From IMG/VR virus record IMGVR_UViG_3300045988_045270: a stretch of 36,846 bases of DNA; one strand, given 5' to 3'. Origin of the DNA: a virus. Shown piece by piece: positions 1 through 36,846 of this stretch. The notes beneath the pieces are model-generated. The model saw nothing but the letters and a program-made list of their open reading frames with translations. It was not told where the DNA came from and ran no database searches. How positions within the stretch are numbered: the first letter of the stretch is position 1; every line of letters starts with the position of its first letter. The position numbers and the translations under genes were made by a program.

Positions 1-84
1 ATTGTGGCTGAATCCGGGATTGATCCTGATAAAGAAATCACAGTTATGGCAGAAACTGGAAAAATCATTATTGAACAAAAAAAA
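1..84. repeat. Terminal direct repeat, identical to 36763-36846 except for the poly-A run (8 A here, 9 A at the 3' copy); consistent with a circular contig overlap
   Basis: Read directly: 84-nt identity between the window start and end. The run after 'ttgaac' is 8 A here (positions 77-84) and 9 A at 36837-36845. Confidence 0.9.
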
Positions 85-87
85 TAA
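1..87 (+). CDS. 3' end of the AbrB/MazE-like small DNA-binding protein gene (same gene as 36678..36846), partial at the window start; TAA at 85-87
   Basis: In frame with the ORF that starts at 36678, which encodes ...KIVAESGIDPDKEITVMAETGKIIIEQKK*. Confidence 0.5.
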   Translation: MVAESGIDPDKEITVMAETGKIIIEQKK

Positions 88-2320: not shown

Positions 2321-2543
2321 TCCCCCCCATGGTAACGGGCATTTTCTGGTGAGACAGTGAGATGAAACGCCCAAAGGAATGAACACAAAATTAAAAAAAT
2401 CTTATGGTTTTTTGGAAAAACGGCAAATATCACGCTATAATGTGAATATAGCCGTTTTTATGTTTCAAAAAGAAGCAAAAAAGCAAAAAAATGTTCCACG
2501 TGGAACATGAGCGGGCTATATGAATGAAAGGAAGAAAACAAAA
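2321..2543. promoter_or_regulatory. Non-coding region with a C7 run (2322-2328) and a perfect 18-bp palindrome ATGTTCCACGTGGAACAT (2491-2508); candidate cos or terminase-recognition region
   Basis: The palindrome and the unusual C-run in an AT-rich genome are read directly. The position between HNH and the packaging genes is typical for cos. Confidence 0.35.
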
Positions 2544-3098
2544 ATGGAAAACAAAAAAATGAACATTGTTTACAAGAAAGTTAAGGACTTAATTCCGTAT
2601 GAGAACAATCCGAGACATAATGATGAAGCTGTTGACTATGTAGCAAAGAGCATTGAATAGTTTGGCTTCAAAGTTCCGTGTGTTGTGAGTGGTGACGGCG
2701 TATTGATCACGGGTCATACAAGACTTAAAGCATTTAAGAAGTTAGGTATCGAAGAAGTTCCGTGCATTGTGGCTGATGATCTTACTGAAGATCAGATTAA
2801 GGCATTCAGGATTGCAGATAACAAAGTATCCGAATACAGCACATGGGACAACACAAAACTTGCTGAAGAACTGAGCGACATCATGATGGATATGACACAG
2901 TTCGGTGATGATCTTTTCAAGGATGATGATACGATGAACGTTGAGCTTCCCGAAGAAGAAAATCCTTACAGCCAGAAGAAACACATCCCACAGTATGAAC
3001 CGACAGGTGACTTTGTCGATATTATGGAACTTATTGATGATGAAAAGACAAACGAGTTGATAAAAGAAATCAAAGAGTCAAACGTCACTGAAGATTAA
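2544..3098 (+). pseudogene. ParB-like nuclease-domain gene interrupted by an in-frame TAG (2658-2660); the reading frame stays open for a further 75 codons beyond its TAA (3096-3098), to 3323
   Basis: Translation MENKKMNIVYKKVKDLIPYENNPRHNDEAVDYVAKSIE*FGFKVPCVVSGDGVLITGHTRLKAFKKLGIEEVPCIVADDL carries the ParB N-terminal domain motifs (NPR, SI..G...P, GHTRL). The TAG falls inside the conserved block. Confidence 0.6.
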
Positions 3099-3312
3099 AA
3101 GAATTTTCTCATCAAAGGGGCTTACAGACATCTTAAATTCAATTATTCAAAGATTGCTGACTATTATTCCAATGCATCTGAAGAAATGCAGATTCTCATG
3201 GAGAAATCAGCGCTTGTCATTATTGACATTGATGATGCAATTGCAAACGGATATGTGAAACTTACAAAGGCTGTCGAGGACTTGATTGCTGAAGGTGGGG
3301 GCGGTGAAGACA

Positions 3313-4173
3313 ATGATGAATAAAAACTTTGCTGTATTTATTCTTTCACATGGACGTGCGAACAATATCAAGACAGTTAATATGTTGAAACGTTTTCATT
3401 ATACAGGTGATTGGTATGTTGTTATAGACAATGAGGATGATCAAGAAGAACTGTACAGAAATGAGTTTGGAAATCACATCATTCAATTTGATAAGCGAGA
3501 CTATGTAAGCAAAATCGACCTTGGCGACATGGACACAGACAGAATGGTTGGCGTGTTTGCGAGAAACTTTATTCAAGATGAAGCAGAACGTCTTGGCTAT
3601 GAATGCCACCTACAGCTTGATGATGATTTTTCTGAAATCGCAATAAGATATGCAGATGATGATAAATTACAAAGCATGATGGTTACTGACCTTGATGCTG
3701 TATTCGATGCGTGCCTTGATTTATTTTTATCAACGCCGTTGACTGCTTTATCATTTGCATTATCAAGTGATTACATTGGCGGAGTTGCTAGTGATAGGTT
3801 CCAAGCAGGAATGTTCAGGAAAACAATGGGATCGTTTTTCTTAAAAGCAAAAGACAAATTTCAATTTGTCATGCGTATGAACGATGATATTACATCATGC
3901 ATTTTGCACGGATCACGAGGAAAGTTGTTCTATACCATTTCGAGCTTGCAGGTGATTACTCCTGCGACTCAGCATAATACTGGTGGAATGACTGACATCT
4001 ATCAAAAGAATGGTACATATCGAAAATCGTTTTACAGTGTCTTGTGTTGTCCTTCATTTGTGAAGGTTTCAGCGATGGGAATTACTGACTTCAGGATTCA
4101 TCACACTATCAGTTGGAATAATGCCGTGCCAAAGCTTCTATCTGAAAGGTGGTGCAAGCATGAAAGACATTGA
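3313..4173 (+). CDS. GT-A fold (GT2-like) nucleotide-sugar glycosyltransferase
   Basis: N-terminal beta-strand FAVFILSHGRA, VVIDNEDD near residue 40, and the DXD motif LQLDDDF near residue 100. Strong RBS AGGTGGGGGCGGTGAAG precedes the ATG at 3313. Confidence 0.5.
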   Translation: MMNKNFAVFILSHGRANNIKTVNMLKRFHYTGDWYVVIDNEDDQEELYRNEFGNHIIQFDKRDYVSKIDLGDMDTDRMVGVFARNFIQDEAERLGYECHLQLDDDFSEIAIRYADDDKLQSMMVTDLDAVFDACLDLFLSTPLTALSFALSSDYIGGVASDRFQAGMFRKTMGSFFLKAKDKFQFVMRMNDDITSCILHGSRGKLFYTISSLQVITPATQHNTGGMTDIYQKNGTYRKSFYSVLCCPSFVKVSAMGITDFRIHHTISWNNAVPKLLSERWCKHERH

Positions 4174-5260
4174 TTATCTTATTATAGGTGCAGGGCTGAG
4201 CGGTTCAGTGATTGCGAGGGAAATGACGGACAAGGGCTATAAATGCGTTATTCTGGAAGATCGCACCGAGGTTGGTGGAAATATAAGGGACAAGGAAATC
4301 AGCGGAATAAACGTGCATCTATACGGCCCTCATATATTTAGAACTAATGACATCGAAATATGGGCTTATGTTAACCGTTTCGCTAGTTTTAACAATTTTA
4401 TCAATGAACCTATTGCAAATTACAAAGGCGAAATATATAACCTTCCGTTTAACATGAACACATTCTCTAAACTGTGGAGAGTTACAACACCAGAAGAAGC
4501 AAAGAGAAAGATTGAGGAGCAGAGAATACCGTGTGAAGATCCGAAAAATCTCGAAGAATATGTTCTAAATCTTGTAGGCACGGATATTTATGATAAATTG
4601 ATAAAAGGATACACAGAAAAGCAGTGGGGCAAGCCATGCAAGGAACTTGATAAAAGTATTATCAGGCGTATTCCGTTGCGATTCACGTACAACAATAATT
4701 ATTTCAATGCAAAGTACCAAGGCATTCCCGTTGATGGTTATTCTAAGGCAGTAGAAAGACTCCTAGAAGGCGTTGAAGTGGTGACAGGGTATAAATGTTC
4801 ATGCTCAAGTAAAGAGTGGCTAGAAAGGGCAAAAAACGTGGTTCTGACAGGTGCTATTGACGAGTGGTACGGTTATTGCTTTGGAACGTTAGAATATCGT
4901 AGCCTGAAATTTGAAACAGAGGAATTGAAGGAAGAAAATCATCAAGGCAATGCTGTCGTGAATTATACCGATGCTAGAGTGCCGTATACCAGAGTTATTG
5001 AACACAAGCATTTCACAGGGGTGAATACATCGACAACCATTATCACGAAGGAATATCCGCAGAAATGGAATATCGGGAAAGAGCGGTACTATCCGATTGA
5101 AGATGAAAAGAACAAAGCACTGTATCAGAAATACAAAGAACTTGCAGACCGTGATGGATTGATCACAGTTGGAAGGCTTGCAGAGTACAAATATTATGAT
5201 ATGGAAGATACAATCAAAAGTGCATTAAAGGCGGTGAGAGAATTATGCGAAAAACAGTAA
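4160..5260 (+). CDS. glf: UDP-galactopyranose mutase (Glf-like flavoenzyme)
   Basis: FAD-binding DYLIIGAGLSGSVIA...GGNIRD motif, and HLYGPHIFRTND...VW.YVN.F..FN.F.N...A.YKGEIYNLPFNMNTF matches the UGM family along its whole length. RBS GAAAGGTGGTG. Confidence 0.85.
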   Translation: MKDIDYLIIGAGLSGSVIAREMTDKGYKCVILEDRTEVGGNIRDKEISGINVHLYGPHIFRTNDIEIWAYVNRFASFNNFINEPIANYKGEIYNLPFNMNTFSKLWRVTTPEEAKRKIEEQRIPCEDPKNLEEYVLNLVGTDIYDKLIKGYTEKQWGKPCKELDKSIIRRIPLRFTYNNNYFNAKYQGIPVDGYSKAVERLLEGVEVVTGYKCSCSSKEWLERAKNVVLTGAIDEWYGYCFGTLEYRSLKFETEELKEENHQGNAVVNYTDARVPYTRVIEHKHFTGVNTSTTIITKEYPQKWNIGKERYYPIEDEKNKALYQKYKELADRDGLITVGRLAEYKYYDMEDTIKSALKAVRELCEKQ

Positions 5261-5619
5261 ATGAACAGGCTGAAGAAATATTACAGAAAGCAGAAACATT
5301 CGGAGTTGATAAGAATTTCTTTTTTATCACGACATTCAGGCGATACATGGTACAGTTGAAAATATTAAACGAGCTTGAATCGTCGATAAAAAATGACGGC
5401 GTGTTGGTTACGAAAGAATATGTAAAAGGAAGAAAAAACGTATATTCACATCCAGCCATTCAGGATTATAACCGAACAACTGACAGTGCAAATAAGACAG
5501 TCAGCACGTTAATGAAGATCATTTCGAGATTTTCCAGTGATGATAATTCTGAAAATGATACTGACCCATTGCTTCAGCTGATAAATGGCGGTGACGATGA
5601 TGGCAGTGACGAGCAGTAA
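5245..5619 (+). CDS. terS: Terminase small subunit (P27 family)
   Basis: About 120 aa with ...KEYVKGRKNVYSHPA... and an acidic C-terminus, immediately upstream of TerL. Typical partner of an HNH endonuclease. Confidence 0.65.
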   Translation: MRKTVNEQAEEILQKAETFGVDKNFFFITTFRRYMVQLKILNELESSIKNDGVLVTKEYVKGRKNVYSHPAIQDYNRTTDSANKTVSTLMKIISRFSSDDNSENDTDPLLQLINGGDDDGSDEQ

Positions 5620-5716: not shown

Positions 5717-6328
5717 ATGGGTACATATACTGTATATAAGCATACATCACCAAATGGAAAGGTATATATCGGAATCACAAAGCTAAGTGTTGAAAGACGG
5801 TGGCAAGAAGGAAAAAATTACAAGACAAGCAGTCATTTTAATAATGCCATAAAAAAATACGGATGGGACAACATTAAACATGAAATCCTATTTACAGGGC
5901 TTTCAAGAAGCGAAGCAGAAGCAAAAGAAATAGAACTAATTGCCAAATATGACAGCACGAATCAGCGTAATGGTTACAACATAGAAAAAGGCGGAAATAC
6001 TCCTGAAATGTCAGAAGAAACACGTCAAAAGATGAGCAAGGCACACAAAGGCAGAAAGTACAAAAAGCGTAGAAACCACACAGAAGAAGAAAAGCTAGCA
6101 ATTAGCAAAAAATTAAAAGGAAGGGCATCTCCAATGAAGGGAAAACATTGGAGCATAGAACAACGCAGTGCAGTAGGAACGCCTATAATATGCACAACGA
6201 CAGGTGAAGAATTTTATAGCATTCGTGATGCATCACGTTCTACAGGATGCGACAGAGCAAATATATCTAGAGTATTAAAAGGAGAATACAAACAGACAAG
6301 GGGGCTTAAGTTTGAGTATAAAAAATAG
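5717..6328 (+). CDS. Free-standing GIY-YIG homing endonuclease with NUMOD3-like repeats
   Basis: GIY-YIG motif YTVYKHTSPNGKVYIGIT...R...E, repeated KxxKGRK/SPMKGKHWS DNA-binding modules, and an HTH-like C-terminus. The gene is inserted between terS and terL and its stop is a tandem TAG-TAA. Confidence 0.85.
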   Translation: MGTYTVYKHTSPNGKVYIGITKLSVERRWQEGKNYKTSSHFNNAIKKYGWDNIKHEILFTGLSRSEAEAKEIELIAKYDSTNQRNGYNIEKGGNTPEMSEETRQKMSKAHKGRKYKKRRNHTEEEKLAISKKLKGRASPMKGKHWSIEQRSAVGTPIICTTTGEEFYSIRDASRSTGCDRANISRVLKGEYKQTRGLKFEYKK

Positions 6329-8000
6329 TAAAGCATATATATACTGCAAAGAAAATTATAGAAAACAGACTTGCCCTAAGTACGTCCGAAAGCAGATGCG
6401 AGACTGGATGAAGATTGCAGAAGGAAAAAACGCAAAGTACTTTGTATCTGAAAAGAAGGTTCAGCAGATCGAAAACATTCTGAAACTGCTTATCATGCCA
6501 AAAGGATTGAAAGCAGGACAGTCTATGTATAAGTGCGCAACTGGGTATCAATGGCTAATTTACACAGCCATGCTATGCACTGTATATCGTGACAAACCGA
6601 AAAATCGCAGATATGAGACAGGGCTGTTAGAAATATGCAGAAAGAATTTTAAGACATATACAGTCGGAACAATCTTTATTATCTTGTTTTTGACAGAGCC
6701 AAGGTTTTCAAAATTCTTTTCAGTTGCACCAGATGGAGCATTGTCAAGAGAAATAAAAGAAGCAATATCTGACACAATTAAAAGCAGTCCGCTTATTTAT
6801 GAATATAAAGGAACGAAGCGTTTTAAGTTGTTAAGGGACTACATTAAGTTCAAGCCGAATGAAAATACGTTGATCCCGTTAGCATACAGTAATAACCGTA
6901 TGGACGGACGTATGCCGAATGCATTTATCGCTGATGAAGTTGGAGCATTGCCAAATGGTTATCCTGTTGAAGCTATGCGTTCTGGACAGCTAAATGTTGT
7001 TAACAAACTAGGGTTCGTTATCAGCACAAAATATCCGACAATCGACAATCCTTTCGAGGACGAGGTCGCGTATGCCAAGAAGGTTCTTGATGGCATTGAG
7101 AAAGACGATACTATTTTTGCACTGTTGTATGAACCTGACAAAACATCAGACTGGGAAACAGACAATCTTGTTTTGAAGCAGGCGAATCCTGCATCATTAG
7201 AAATCCCTGAAATCTGGGATGATCTTGTCAAGAAGCGTGCGAGAGCCATTGCCATTGAGAATGAGCGAGAGAACTTTGTAACAAAGCACTGCAATATTAT
7301 CTATCAAGGGCAAGGAACTGAAACGTTTATTGACGTTAAAGATGTTCAAGCGTGCAAGGTTGCAGATATTGATTGGAACGGAAGGGTTGTATATTTAGGC
7401 GTTGACCTTTCAGAATCGAACGATAATACATCTGTTGCCATGGTTTCTGTAGATGATGATGATAACATTCTTGCAGAAAGTTTTGCGTTCATTCCAGCAG
7501 ACAGGATCACAGAGAAAACAATATCAGAGCGTGTGAACTATCAAGAACTATTGAAGAGTGATAAGGTGTTTGCATGTGGTGACAGAGTTATCTCATATGC
7601 GTTTGTCGAGCAGTTCATATTGAGTCTTGAGAGCCGTTATAACGTACAAATTCAGGCGATTGGATATGATAGATGGAATGCATTAAGTACAGCGCAGAAA
7701 CTGGCTAATGAGGGCTATAACACGGTTCAGATAAAGCAGTATTCAAGCGTGCTTCATTCTCCGACAAAGAGAATGAAAGAAGCAATCCTTAAACAGAAAT
7801 TCAAATACACAGAAAACAAGCTTCTTGAAATCAATTATCAGAATGCTAAATGTGCTTATGATACCAACAAAAATATGTATGTCAGCAAGAAAAAGAGCAA
7901 CGGCAAGGTTGATATGGTTGTATCACTTATCAATGCAATTTACCTTCTTGAACAGGATTATTTCTTGAATGAAGGTGACTTCACATTCCAGATGATTTAA
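6312..8000 (+). CDS. terL: Terminase large subunit (Terminase_1 family)
   Basis: N-terminal YFVSEKKVQQIENILKLLIMPKGLKAGQSMYKCATGYQW matches the Terminase_1 signature. Walker B ADEV and a C-terminal RNaseH-like nuclease region (VYLGVDLSESND...) are present. TTG start sits 6 nt after GGGGG. Confidence 0.9.
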   Translation: MSIKNSKAYIYCKENYRKQTCPKYVRKQMRDWMKIAEGKNAKYFVSEKKVQQIENILKLLIMPKGLKAGQSMYKCATGYQWLIYTAMLCTVYRDKPKNRRYETGLLEICRKNFKTYTVGTIFIILFLTEPRFSKFFSVAPDGALSREIKEAISDTIKSSPLIYEYKGTKRFKLLRDYIKFKPNENTLIPLAYSNNRMDGRMPNAFIADEVGALPNGYPVEAMRSGQLNVVNKLGFVISTKYPTIDNPFEDEVAYAKKVLDGIEKDDTIFALLYEPDKTSDWETDNLVLKQANPASLEIPEIWDDLVKKRARAIAIENERENFVTKHCNIIYQGQGTETFIDVKDVQACKVADIDWNGRVVYLGVDLSESNDNTSVAMVSVDDDDNILAESFAFIPADRITEKTISERVNYQELLKSDKVFACGDRVISYAFVEQFILSLESRYNVQIQAIGYDRWNALSTAQKLANEGYNTVQIKQYSSVLHSPTKRMKEAILKQKFKYTENKLLEINYQNAKCAYDTNKNMYVSKKKSNGKVDMVVSLINAIYLLEQDYFLNEGDFTFQMI

Positions 8001-24524: not shown

Positions 24525-25094
24525 CTATTCCATCAGGTGAAACATGGACAGAATCAAGAACATTTCGCCACAGGGTGCGCTTGTTCTCACGTGTGAGGTT
24601 ATCATATATTGAGCGCCAACCGCACCAGTGATAGGTTGACCTTGAGCAATCTTGTACTCAAATACGGCTTTGATACGTTCAGAGCCTTTTTTTAATTCAT
24701 GTTCTGCAAGATTGACTTTAAGGTTGAACATAAACAATCCGTTCGCAGTGGACGTGTTTATATCGTCCTCACAAATGGAAATCATGGCGACATTGTTCTG
24801 TTGAAGAAGTTCAAGCATTTTATTAGCTTCAAGGACATTACGTGACAGACGGTCAAGGCGTGTGAAAGCTATGGCATCAAGATTTTTCAGGTTAGACAGC
24901 ATGGATTGCAGTTGTGGGCGCTTCATGGTGCTTGCTGAGTAGCCTTCGTCTACATAAATATGTTGAAGGATATGATCATTGTCGTTGCACCATTGCGTTA
25001 TTTCTTCAGTCTGGGCCTGTATTGAGTATCCATATTTTTTCTGTTCATCTGTTGAAACACGAGCATATCCTGCCACTCGCAGTTTTTTTCTCAT
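24525..25094 (-). pseudogene. Large serine recombinase (integrase) reduced to its N-terminal catalytic domain; truncated at TAG
   Basis: MRKKLRVAGYARVSTDEQ...YVDEGYSAST.KRP.LQ...LDRLSRN...ERIKA matches the serine recombinase catalytic domain with the Ser nucleophile. The recombinase and zinc-ribbon domains are absent. RBS GGAGGG precedes ATG 25094. Confidence 0.6.
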
Positions 25095-25269
25095 AAAAAA
25101 TCCCTCCGATTGATTGAAAATAAAAAAAGCAGTCCATACTAGCCATTGAAAGGCGGTGAGCATATGGACGCTGAAAGTTTCTATTCTTTGCTGTTTAATC
25201 TTTATGCTGAACAGGAAGATCTCAAAATTGAGTATGAGTTAGACAACTCTTTTTTTTCGACAGATGGTT

Positions 25270-25611
25270 TCAATCAGAAACATTTTTACTGTCAAGGTAC
25301 AACTTCATTATCTTCAGATACAGTTCATCCTTCTCAGGTTCAGGAAGATCGTGAAACAGAGACTCGATGCGCAGTGTGAGGTCTGTCGCTTCGTCATAGC
25401 TTGACGTATCAATTCCAAAGTAAGATATATCAATTCCGTAAACCTCGCAAAAACGTTTCAAAGTTGAAAGAGTCAAGGAACGTTTTCCAGATTCAATATT
25501 TGATATGGCAGGTCTTGAAAGCCCGACAAGGTCAGCGAGTTCAGACTGTTTAAGATCACGGGAGATGCGTAGTTCTTTGAGTTTCCTTCCTATTGATTTA
25601 TTGTTGATCAT
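25270..25611 (-). CDS. CI-like repressor (XRE-family HTH)
   Basis: MINNKSIGRKLKELRISRDLKQSELADLVGLSRPAISNIESGKRSLTLSTL has an HTH_3 pattern. It is divergent from a cro-like gene. RBS GGTGGTG. Confidence 0.7.
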   Translation of the reverse strand: MINNKSIGRKLKELRISRDLKQSELADLVGLSRPAISNIESGKRSLTLSTLKRFCEVYGIDISYFGIDTSSYDEATDLTLRIESLFHDLPEPEKDELYLKIMKLYLDSKNVSD

Positions 25612-25757
25612 TATTTTACACCACCTAAAAAAGTTTATATTTCGATGATAACATAACGTTGCTATTTGAAACAATAAAAAATAATCGTCTTTTGATTAAA
25701 AGTAGTTGCAATTTGATTACAAGGGTTTATAATGTAATGCATGAAAGGGGGCACGAA
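25612..25757. promoter_or_regulatory. Divergent cI/cro intergenic switch. The rightward promoter has -35 TTGCAA (25706-25711) and -10 TATAAT (25728-25733), flanked by direct repeats TTTGATTA(A/C)AAG at 25691 and 25712
   Basis: Read directly from the sequence; 16-nt spacer. Confidence 0.5.
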
Positions 25758-27848: not shown

Positions 27849-28272
27849 AAAAGTTGAAAACGTAGACTTTGAAAAGTTAAAGAAATGTTTAAAAGATCAT
27901 GGAATCAAGTACACAGACTTGTCTACAGTGTGCGGATATTATCCAAACTATATCAAAGATGTCGCTTTACCAAGGAATTTTCTAAACACACACGTTAGAG
28001 ATGTATTGACTTATGCTTATAAGATTGACCCTAGCGAGTATATAGATACACAGCCAAAAGAAGTAATCAACACAGAGGATACACAGCAAAAAGAAGTAGC
28101 CAACGCAGAAGATGATGAGATGTATACATTTACTTTTTCGATTAATTGGAAATTGTTAAAAAGATTGACGATGCTATCTATAAAAGAGCATATCACTATT
28201 GAGGGTTTAGTGTCTAAATTCATCATTAAAGGAATTGGCGAAAAAATTGTTGAGGAAAGTGAAAATGAATAA
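27829..28272 (+). CDS. Hypothetical protein
   Basis: ORF in operon context. Confidence 0.3.
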   Translation: MRKRCNEKVENVDFEKLKKCLKDHGIKYTDLSTVCGYYPNYIKDVALPRNFLNTHVRDVLTYAYKIDPSEYIDTQPKEVINTEDTQQKEVANAEDDEMYTFTFSINWKLLKRLTMLSIKEHITIEGLVSKFIIKGIGEKIVEESENE

Positions 28273-28663
28273 TGTTAGTTTGATCGGAAGACTTACAAAG
28301 GATGTTCAGGAACGCAGAACGCAGAACGGAACACCAGTTGTCTCATTCACATTGGCAGTTGATCGCAGAAAGAGAGAAGACGGAGCAGATTTTATCAACT
28401 GCATTGCATGGGACAAGGCTGCTGAAACAATCGCACGATATGTTCATAAGGGTGACTTGTTTGGAGTGACTGGATATATTCAGACAAGAAGCTACGAGAA
28501 GGATGGCAGAAAGAATTATGCGACAGAAGTAGTCACGACAGGTTTTCAGTTCTTGGAGCGCAAGCGTGAATCTGACAGCCCTAGCGGTCAAAATAAGAGC
28601 GATTCTTATGATGGTTGGGGGAATGCAAGTAACGACATAAATGACAGTGAACTTCCGTTCTAG
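28265..28663 (+). CDS. ssb: Single-stranded DNA-binding protein
   Basis: OB-fold N-terminus MNNVSLIGRLTKDVQERRTQNGTPVVSFTLAV, a Gly/Ser/Asn-rich linker, and an acidic C-terminal tip DSELPF. TAG stop. Confidence 0.85.
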   Translation: MNNVSLIGRLTKDVQERRTQNGTPVVSFTLAVDRRKREDGADFINCIAWDKAAETIARYVHKGDLFGVTGYIQTRSYEKDGRKNYATEVVTTGFQFLERKRESDSPSGQNKSDSYDGWGNASNDINDSELPF

Positions 28664-32706: not shown

Positions 32707-32771
32707 GTTTCAAAAAGAAACAAAATACGGAAAAATGTATTGCAATCGCTTATATATTATGATATTATAAT
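32707..32771. repeat. 65-bp palindrome-plus-promoter cassette, copy 2
   Basis: See 30858-30922. It lies immediately after the stop of the DnaC-like gene. Confidence 0.85.
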
Positions 32772-32811
32772 AAGCGTAAAGAGAAAGGGAAAAAGAAAGG
32801 AAAAAAAGAAC

Positions 32812-33138
32812 ATGACAAACGCACAAATTATATTCAATGAAGCAGTTGAACTTATGAAAAATGGAAAAATCGGAACAACAGGCAATCAGTTTGAAGTTGA
32901 AGATGAAAACGGCAACAAAATGATCCTCGATGAACCAGAAGACATTCATACATTCCAAGCATGGAAAAAGCTCGGTTATTGTGTGAAGAAAGGCGAGAAA
33001 GCTGTTGCACAGTTCTACATCTGGAAATGTGTATCAAAGGAAGTTGAAAATAGCGAAGGAATAACCGAAGAACAGAAAAAAATGTTCATGAAAAAAGCAA
33101 GCTTCTTCAGCGCAAGCCAAGTGCAGGCAATGAATTAA
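32812..33138 (+). CDS. ArdC N-terminal-like (DUF1738-like) ssDNA-binding domain protein; possible anti-restriction function
   Basis: IHTFQAWKKLGYCVKKGEKAVAQFYIW...FFSASQVQ resembles the ArdC N-terminal motif W.TF.QA..LGG.V.KGEKG...F...QV. The call rests on motif recall. Confidence 0.35.
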   Translation: MTNAQIIFNEAVELMKNGKIGTTGNQFEVEDENGNKMILDEPEDIHTFQAWKKLGYCVKKGEKAVAQFYIWKCVSKEVENSEGITEEQKKMFMKKASFFSASQVQAMN

Positions 33139-34644: not shown

Positions 34645-35007
34645 ATGGATTCACAGGAATTAAATAAGGTATTCGATACGCTTGTGGCAAATTGTCCTGT
34701 ACTCGAAAAAGTATGCGAGATGTGGGGTAATCAGCATATGTTAACTATCGCAATGGAAGAAAATGCTGAACTTATACAAGCAATATCAAAAATTAAACGT
34801 AATGGATTGGACCCAATCAACGCTTCACACTTAGATGAAGAGGTTGCAGATGTATTGATATGCATATGTGAACTATATGCGATGGATTGTCTAGATGTAT
34901 ATGAAATTGCTGAAATCATAAAAAGCAAAGTAGGAAGATCTATGAAAAGAACTCAGGATTATATAAAAGATTTAGAAGAGGAGGCTAGATGCGATGGCAG
35001 TTTTTAG
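34645..35007 (+). CDS. MazG-like nucleotide pyrophosphohydrolase
   Basis: EENAELIQAISKIKRNG...HLDEEVADVLICICEL matches the MazG small-NTP-PPase motifs (E..E...EE..D). Confidence 0.65.
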   Translation: MDSQELNKVFDTLVANCPVLEKVCEMWGNQHMLTIAMEENAELIQAISKIKRNGLDPINASHLDEEVADVLICICELYAMDCLDVYEIAEIIKSKVGRSMKRTQDYIKDLEEEARCDGSF

Positions 35008-36229: not shown

Positions 36230-36409
36230 ATGATGAATAAAAACAGGGCATTATGCCTTTTATCAGACATATGTATATTAGTTATTCTAATTTCCATGGT
36301 TCTTACTGGAAATAACTGGAACTCAACTGAAGTGAAAGTCTTCTGTTGCAGTTCGCTTTTTATGAATATACTGTTCGTTCAGTATTTTCTTATTACAGGA
36401 GGAAGATAG
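36230..36409 (+). CDS. Small membrane protein (59 aa)
   Basis: RBS AAAGGAGTG. Hydrophobic LCLLSDICILVILISMVL. Confidence 0.3.
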   Translation: MMNKNRALCLLSDICILVILISMVLTGNNWNSTEVKVFCCSSLFMNILFVQYFLITGGR

Positions 36410-36410
36410 C

Positions 36411-36488
36411 ATGGATTTTATTGGACTCTTACTCATAGCAGTATCAATAGTTTTGATAGCGATTGGATGCTTTTGGAAAGAGAACTAA
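36411..36488 (+). CDS. Membrane micro-peptide (25 aa)
   Basis: RBS AGGAGGAAGATAGC. Translation MDFIGLLLIAVSIVLIAIGCFWKEN. Confidence 0.2.
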   Translation: MDFIGLLLIAVSIVLIAIGCFWKEN

Positions 36489-36530
36489 ATAAATATAAAA
36501 AATGGCTCGTGAAGTTATTTGAGGGTGTCA

Positions 36531-36596
36531 GCACAAAACGCAATACTTATAATATGACTTATAATTTCCCAATACTTTTACTGAAAATCGTTTCTC
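36531..36596. promoter_or_regulatory. Three AATACTT repeats (36532, 36561, 36589) plus tandem TTATAAT boxes upstream of the first late-operon gene
   Basis: Read directly from the sequence. Confidence 0.35.
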
Positions 36597-36677
36597 CTAA
36601 TACTTAGTGTTGGCATTCTCAAACGACTTCATGAGTTAGATAACTATATATTTAAAAAGATAAATGAGAGGTATGAA

Positions 36678-36846
36678 ATGGCAAAACTTGCGAAAATGAA
36701 GTACAAAACTATGGGTGGCGATGTAAAAATCAACACGTATAATGCGACAATATCAAAAAAGATTGTGGCTGAATCCGGGATTGATCCTGATAAAGAAATC
36801 ACAGTTATGGCAGAAACTGGAAAAATCATTATTGAACAAAAAAAAT
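36678..36846 (+). CDS. AbrB/MazE (SpoVT-AbrB swapped-hairpin)-like small DNA-binding protein, first gene of the late/lysis transcription unit; continues into the terminal repeat
   Basis: RBS GAGAGG. VKINTYNATISKKIVAESGIDPDKEITVMAETGKIII fits the AbrB-type beta-hairpin pattern. Confidence 0.45.
   Translation, partial: MAKLAKMKYKTMGGDVKINTYNATISKKIVAESGIDPDKEITVMAETGKIIIEQKK
36763..36846. repeat. Terminal direct repeat, copy of 1-84
   Basis: See the first feature. Confidence 0.9.

Follow-up and report, generated by a model that had tools for sequence, protein, structure and literature searches.

We analysed a viral genome from the IMG/VR collection, record IMGVR_UViG_3300045988_045270 (36,846 nucleotides, here called the window), in which a ParB-like gene at positions 2544-3323 is interrupted by two in-frame stop codons. 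Our results indicate that this locus is very probably a recently inactivated, dispensable accessory gene, that is, an ordinary young pseudogene. Its orthologues are intact, each of its two stops can be derived from a sense codon by a single substitution, and a second assembly, the ENA contig L061 (LIJU14-1_SAMEA2338658 scaffold_728, 36,816 bp), holds the same two stops. In the scenario that we propose, the intact ancestor would have been an orphan ParB-CTPase-fold protein in which an acidic disordered linker joined an N-terminal ParB/Srx domain to a helical C-terminal domain. Two point mutations, G>T (Glu39 to TAG) and C>T (Gln185 to TAA), would then have inactivated the gene. Under the standard code, translation would end after 38 residues and probably no functional protein would be made, and the downstream 220 codons would still look coding because the inactivation is recent. 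The gene appears to sit in a dispensable module (a promoter-like site, a parS site, the ParB-like gene, a TAGT-family glycosyltransferase gene and the UDP-galactopyranose mutase gene Glf), which is flanked by the HNH/cos region on one side and by the terminase genes on the other. Its loss would be tolerated there, and possibly favoured, so that broken alleles persist and recur.

The ATG at 2544 opens a plus-strand frame of 259 codons that extends to 3323. Its translation runs from MENKK to AKSIE, meets a TAG at 2658-2660, continues from FGFKVP to NVTED, meets a TAA at 3096-3098, and then reads from KNFLIK to EDNDE before the native TAA at 3321-3323. Codons 1-38 (2544-2657) align to the N-terminus of intact orthologues of 257-259 amino acids (aa) and are the sole part that standard translation would make. 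The premature TAG stands in place of Glu39. Codons 40-184 (2661-3095) hold the remainder of the ParB-CTPase domain with its GHTRLKA box and run through the acidic linker into the C-terminal domain; they are no longer translated from the native start. Behind the second premature stop, which differs in kind from the first and replaces Gln185, codons 186-259 and the native TAA (3099-3323) cover the conserved helical C-terminal domain and align codon for codon with intact orthologues. Given the base composition of the window, the probability of an open stretch as long as the 74 sense codons 3′ of the TAA at 3096 was about 0.003, and that of the 145-codon middle piece about 1e-5, so the continued openness of the frame is not due to chance. 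The initial annotation of this DNA had described the same coordinates and both stops, with the TAG inside a conserved ParB box, and our alignments agree with it. It had also judged the open frame behind the TAA unlikely to arise by chance, which holds, although its count of 75 open codons has to be corrected to 74 and a stop. As for its label, ‘ParB-like nuclease', the first half is borne out by the full-length profile match described below, and ‘nuclease' is inherited annotation only.

The codons that the two stops replaced can be read from the relatives. The closest cultured relatives of the gene are the Lactobacillus delbrueckii phages c5, phiLdb and PMBT4 (genus Cequinquevirus). In each of them one coding sequence of 774 nucleotides aligns end to end with 2544-3323, at 70-72% nucleotide and about 80% amino-acid identity over 257-259 codons, with GAG opposite the TAG and GAA opposite the TAA of the window. 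Fifteen IMG/VR contigs are 86-96% identical to the gene at the nucleotide level, and most of them encode a single uninterrupted protein of 259 aa. Position 2658 is G in 15/15 of these contigs, and position 3096 is C in 13/15 and G in 2/15. From these bases, the lesions are GAG>TAG at Glu39 and CAA>TAA at Gln185, the latter being Glu in some relatives. An intact single open reading frame (ORF) of 257-259 aa was found in c5, phiLdb and PMBT4, in about 30 gut-metagenome phage contigs and in thousands of database proteins. An alignment to intact phage proteins, which had been proposed as a check on the replaced residue, thus gave Glu39, encoded by GAG in the relatives, and orthologues that are single intact ORFs. 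A megablast of 25 kb against the GenBank phage collection found no near-identical phage.

The protein encoded by the conceptual read-through matched PHROG 620, ‘ParB-like partition protein', over its full length (residues 2-243, E = 1.2e-66). Its match to Pfam ParB_N (E = 6e-5) was below the gathering score, although PF02195 is a precomputed assignment for almost every intact homologue. A protein database search returned 7,840 proteins at E <= 1e-10, mostly of 242-259 aa. In an alignment of 49 homologues, Glu39 was at least 90% conserved inside an SIxEFGF box. The residues P18, Y19, N22, P23 and R24, together with G57, H58, T59 and R60, were invariant in these homologues. The window frame encodes all of them and so retains the NPR and GHTR (GxxRxxA; GHTRLKA) boxes of the ParB fold as putative nucleotide-binding motifs. 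Structural features were taken from an AlphaFold (AF2) model of an intact homologue, P0028, with a mean predicted local distance difference test score (pLDDT) of 67.7. This model has a confident N-terminal domain (residues 5-95), a disordered acidic linker (116-154) and a confident helical C-terminal domain (160-225, pLDDT 85-94). The N-terminal domain superposes on the ParB proteins of B. subtilis (6sdk) and M. xanthus (7bnr) with a root-mean-square deviation of 2.3 Å over about 96 residues, and a fold search aimed at the C-terminal domain returned matches to the N-terminal domain only. No helix-turn-helix (HTH) DNA-binding domain was visible in the model or by Pfam. The sequence and fold of the N-terminal domain and its conserved boxes place the locus in the ParB/Srx family (ParB-CTPase fold, PF02195). 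Its ORF, in contrast to an uninterrupted member, is cut twice, at codons 39 (TAG) and 185 (TAA), and the locus is a pseudogene of the family, not a working member.

Seven substitutions in the 780 nucleotides are specific to the lineage of the window: two nonsense, two missense (C64F and E258D) and three synonymous. The remaining frame has no further stops or frameshifts, and the protein is about 96% identical to that of intact relatives. Together, these features indicate that the inactivation is recent relative to the divergence of the phage group. The downstream TAGT gene also carries a lineage-specific change, R78M (G>T at 3545), which is unique among 10 relatives and absent from L061.

The same gene is broken repeatedly in the relatives. 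A TAG stands at codon 38 in L010, L083 and L090 and a TAA at this codon in L063, and AGA-TAG was found at codons 38-39 of L082, where the gene has a different C-terminal part. L021 has a frameshift near codon 35. Deletions of one nucleotide were found near codon 46 in three ENA projects (L100-L102), at codon 51 (L064) and at codon 243, there together with a TAGT-Glf deletion (L016 and L095). L065 (P0086, 16 member sequences) has lost the C-terminal domain in frame. Furthermore, deletions have fused the ParB-like gene to TAGT or Glf (L062, L069 and P0085), an upstream second TAGT paralogue is fused in frame to the ParB-like gene (P0037 and P0084), and in L014 the TAGT gene itself carries a stop. 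Cultured, plaque-forming phages are affected as well. The ORFs of LL-Ku (L103, 90-938) and Ld25A (L104, 90-515) are labelled in RefSeq as a glycosyltransferase and a ‘ParB-like partition nuclease', respectively, but are really in-frame deletion fusions of ParB-like codons 1-34 or 1-91 to parts of TAGT, and in phiLdb the glycosyltransferase is split. These three phages indicate that the module is dispensable for lytic growth, at least in Cequinquevirus, and it may be equally so in the host of the window phage. No stop or frameshift was found in TerS or TerL of these loci, although several relatives hold an insertion within TerL.

Two ideas about how the window stops arose were rejected. In the first, the G>T change at 2658 would have made an internal promoter (TTGACT-18-AATAGT); the codon-38 alleles of L010 and L063 create no comparable -10 element, and the number of promoter-type matches in the AT-rich window (18 found, 11.8 expected) also counts against the idea. 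In the second, the mutation would have been templated by a quasi-palindrome. The segments TTGAAG and CTTCAA can pair, judged by eye, but the observed changes break the stem and do not perfect it.

Several points weigh against plain decay as a complete account. The neighbouring codons 38 and 39 have become stops on at least three to four different synonymous backgrounds, which random decay does not predict. Two nonsense changes among seven substitutions are more than neutral drift would predict, and the first hit may have been selected; the counts of three synonymous, two missense and two nonsense changes, set beside mixed ratios in neighbouring genes, are too few to demonstrate relaxed selection. 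The window and L061 may be two assemblies of one sample, and a conclusion drawn from sequence alone may leave room for low-level read-through.

Among the alternatives, the one that survives best is that the knock-out is adaptive, with loss of the ParB-like gene, and elsewhere of TAGT or Glf, being repeatedly selected. We regard this as a possibility to be taken seriously, though an unlikely one. A host defence that senses the protein or modified DNA could possibly exert such selection, as could CRISPR spacers directed at the conserved 5′ part of the gene, which would lead to escape mutations around codons 35-51. Adaptive loss would fit the many independent lesion alleles in the ParB-like gene and the lack of any in TerS and TerL, as well as the recovery of some broken alleles in several samples (L100-L102 and the 16 sequences of P0086). 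It would also fit the position of the lesions. In samples unbiased by fragment length, codons 35-39 account for three of the four point-lesion alleles (the frameshift of L021 near 35, the stop of L010 at 38 and that of the window at 39), with only 87 of the 259 codons lying one step from a stop, and codon 38 is unusually variable (E, K, R or stop). However, much of the overall clustering comes from a look-up limited to N-terminal fragments; the fragment cluster inspected could hold only products of 32-62 aa, so that part of it is ascertainment bias. Neutral loss of a dispensable gene would, moreover, give many lesion types too. Possible causes of the clustering at codons 35-51 are a mutational hotspot, selection on the position of the cut and CRISPR escape. 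Adaptive loss would in any case refine the pseudogene explanation and is compatible with it.

It is very improbable that the stops arose through errors of sequencing or assembly, or through a minority variant being raised to consensus. Both are single-base substitutions in a metagenome-assembled contig, and several of the lineage-specific changes are G>T (2658, 2734, 3317 and 3545), a class of change that oxidative DNA damage yields. However, L061 has both stops, and its alignment with the window shows only 2 differences in 6,098 bases (2663 and 3545). Judged by this alignment, L061 is a separate assembly of a nearly identical genome and the allele is real, and an assembly error was rejected on this ground. 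The 137-aa middle fragment was found verbatim on three to four public contigs, with fragments recorded in NCBI, ENA and JGI, and other broken alleles of the gene come from several independent projects.

We also give very little credence to the idea that the gene now works in pieces, as a 38-aa N-terminal peptide, a 137-aa product from the GTG at 2685 and a 45-aa product from the ATG at 3186. Gene callers do predict three ORFs, and re-initiation past a premature stop is known in bacteria. However, the two downstream starts are ordinary codons of the intact relatives, Val48 and Met215, and neither is preceded by a Shine-Dalgarno motif. The 137-aa piece would lack the first strand of the ParB fold and its invariant P18-Y19-x-x-N22-P23-R24 motif, and the 45-aa piece would comprise part only of the helical C-terminal domain. 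The phage ParB proteins associated with 5mYOX enzymes, moreover, need both their N- and C-terminal domains for function (PMC13229309), which speaks against a function of the parts.

The genetic code of the phage was examined on the whole genome. From its 85-bp terminal direct repeat (window 1-85 = 36762-36846), the window can be recognised as a complete circular assembly of about 36.76 kb, and ARAGORN found 0 tRNA and 0 tmRNA genes on it. Among non-nested plus-strand ORFs of at least 60 aa, 31 end with TAA, 15 with TGA and 6 with TAG, and SSB (28235-28663) ends in DSELPF directly followed by TAG. A scan of the window for long same-frame ORF neighbours split by a single stop yielded, apart from this locus, nothing but ordinary adjacent genes; one further frame with an internal TAG (36230-36607) was rejected, as its second half is not coding-looking. 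Thus the window has no suppressor tRNA, no set of many in-frame stops in late genes and no stop that is avoided as a terminator, the features that mark recoded phages with genetic code 15 or 4. The in-frame TAG in a gut phage gene is all that it shares with such phages; unlike in them, only one gene is affected, TAA is hit as well as TAG, and TAA, TGA and TAG all act as terminators. On these grounds recoding or suppression is unsupported, and we rejected both code reassignment and a suppressor encoded by the phage. Least probable of all is that the stops are nevertheless read through and full-length protein is still made: the downstream codons are intact and 96% identical to those of functional relatives, and an ochre suppressor, which in principle reads both UAA and UAG, or programmed read-through could serve, but tRNA genes are absent from the genome, TAA is the commonest terminator, TAG ends SSB just behind its DSELPF tip, no other gene has internal stops, the stop positions are sense codons in the relatives, and at known read-through rates near-cognate passage of two stops gives a negligible yield. 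The initial annotation had likewise held genome-wide TAG reassignment to be unlikely, pointing to the end of SSB, and the six TAG-terminated ORFs and the lack of tRNA genes strengthen that view. It had left three options for the gene, of which a fresh pseudogene is now favoured by the intact orthologues and the single-base stops; a split gene and low-level suppression gained no support.

Three aspects of the locus had been overlooked in that annotation: a parS site 37 nucleotides upstream of the gene, the TAGT and Glf genes downstream, and the repeated breakage of the ParB-like gene in relatives. Genes for a lysin (906-1940) and an HNH endonuclease (1940-2320) lie upstream. A promoter-like sequence, TTGGAA-18-TATAAT, lies on the plus strand at 2412-2441, a pattern match only (10/12 matches in a consensus scan). 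It is followed by a perfect parS palindrome, TGTTCCACGTGGAACA, at 2492-2507, and by the ParB-like gene, whose stop overlaps the start of a plus-strand gene of the TAGT family (‘TET-associated glycosyltransferase') at 3313-4173 (PF20691, E = 1.6e-36). The gene for UDP-galactopyranose mutase (Glf; 4160-5260, plus strand; PF03275, E = 2.5e-74) is the last of the accessory module before TerS (5245-5619), and galactofuranose is possibly what the TAGT protein transfers. Between TerS and TerL (6312-8000) lies a NUMOD-type homing endonuclease gene (5717-6328), which is absent from most close relatives. In several relatives, about 1.09 kb of DNA is instead inserted in TerL near window position 6650, possibly an intron or intein.

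The palindrome TGTTCCACGTGGAACA has 0 mismatches to the parS consensus TGTTNCACGTGNAACA, and 0/100 shuffles of the window reached zero mismatches. We take TGTTNCACGTGNAACA to be the consensus of chromosomal parS, and hence read 2492-2507 as a host-type parS. The site is present at the same place in many close relatives, has one or two mismatches in others and is absent in a few. A relative with 48% protein identity, L021, has two perfect copies of TGTTTCACGTGAAACA, at 3740 and 3856, the second of which again lies between a promoter-like site and the ribosome-binding site of the L021 ParB-like gene. The more likely reader of the site is the host's own ParB, given that no HTH is visible in the phage protein. 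We found no association between the integrity of parS and that of the ParB-like gene among the relatives; perfect and degenerate sites occur with intact and broken genes alike. In many relatives, though not in the window, about 0.83 kb is inserted between parS and the ParB-like gene, at window position 2508-2510. The inserted gene is another TAGT paralogue, which shares about 33% identity with the downstream TAGT (L005, 3011-3844; also L009, L010, L011, L015, L017 and L018).

Comparison with known systems places the locus more closely. In Cequinquevirus, the ParB-like gene (c5 ORF1, phiLdb_0001 and its PMBT4 counterpart; PHROG 620) has the same position as in the window, after cos/HNH and before the terminase genes, is followed by a TAGT-type glycosyltransferase gene, and is variably deleted as well, as in LL-Ku and Ld25A. 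The window differs in its two nonsense codons, in its upstream parS and in its downstream Glf; neither parS nor Glf was found in the Lactobacillus phage loci. With chromosomal ParB/Spo0J and Noc, the CTP-dependent clamps of the ParABS partition type, the protein shares the fold of the N-terminal domain, the invariant GHTRLKA box and a consensus parS beside the gene, and the family profile matches Noc and Spo0J by sequence. Unlike them, it has an acidic disordered linker and no HTH; a Pfam scan of about 20 window ORFs found no ParA-like family, and the ParA-binding motif (L/F/I)G(K/R)G(L/F/I) is absent from the N-terminus of the translated frame. Thus, of the components of a canonical ParABS system, only a nearby, putatively cognate parS was found, and without the HTH domain and the ParA partner or motif the protein is not a canonical partition ParB. 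It belongs instead with the orphan phage proteins of the ParB-CTPase fold that have been surveyed (PMC12704722). The 5mYOX-associated ParB activators of phage thymine dioxygenases are such orphans, with a CTPase-fold N-domain, a C-terminal domain and no obvious DNA-binding domain (PMC13229309, PNAS 2026). The window family resembles them in having a nucleotide-binding domain and a C-terminal domain without a DNA-binding domain (in the P0028 model) and in lying near DNA glycosyltransferase and terminase genes; this likeness is one of architecture and neighbourhood. Unlike the loci of these activators, the window has a broken ParB-like copy, and Pfam found no TET/JBP (PF12851 or related) or thymidylate-synthase-like (ThyA-like) gene among the window ORFs scanned, a soft negative for the dioxygenase, as divergent 5mYOXs that escape Pfam have been reported (PMC13229309).

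These surroundings suggest a more speculative reading, which we consider improbable but less so than an error or a working remnant. The parS site and the ParB-like, TAGT and Glf genes might form a module for ParB-clamp-assisted DNA glycosylation or for regulation, loaded at the host-type parS and repeatedly switched off by mutation. If this were true, the module would be switched off to escape, for example, host defence or CRISPR targeting, which would account for the lesions around codons 35-51 in unrelated backgrounds. The two stops of the window would then be one case of a recurrent, selected on/off polymorphism and not of random decay.

Elsewhere in the window, at 24525-25674 on the minus strand, a gene for a 212-aa resolvase-type serine recombinase adjoins a cI-like repressor gene. 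No other recombinase or integrase was found among the window ORFs scanned. Taken with the parS site, this may point to a prophage of plasmid-like type or to a decayed lysogeny module. The early region encodes a small protein with an ArdC-N-like anti-restriction domain and a MazG-like pyrophosphatase (32740-33138 and 34645-35007; E = 6e-7 and 1e-4, respectively).

For annotation, our results mean that 2544-3323 should be entered as one pseudogene in place of three small ORFs, and that the genome should not be treated as recoded. For the biology of these phages, the surroundings of the gene are a better lead than its stops: the orphan ParB-like protein, which lacks a DNA-binding domain, is encoded behind a perfect host-type parS and ahead of TAGT and a UDP-galactofuranose-forming enzyme, a notable setting in a genome without a detectable source of hydroxymethyl-pyrimidine. 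If hosts can be found, the natural nonsense, frameshift and deletion alleles would provide a ready-made series for probing the function of phage ParB-like proteins.

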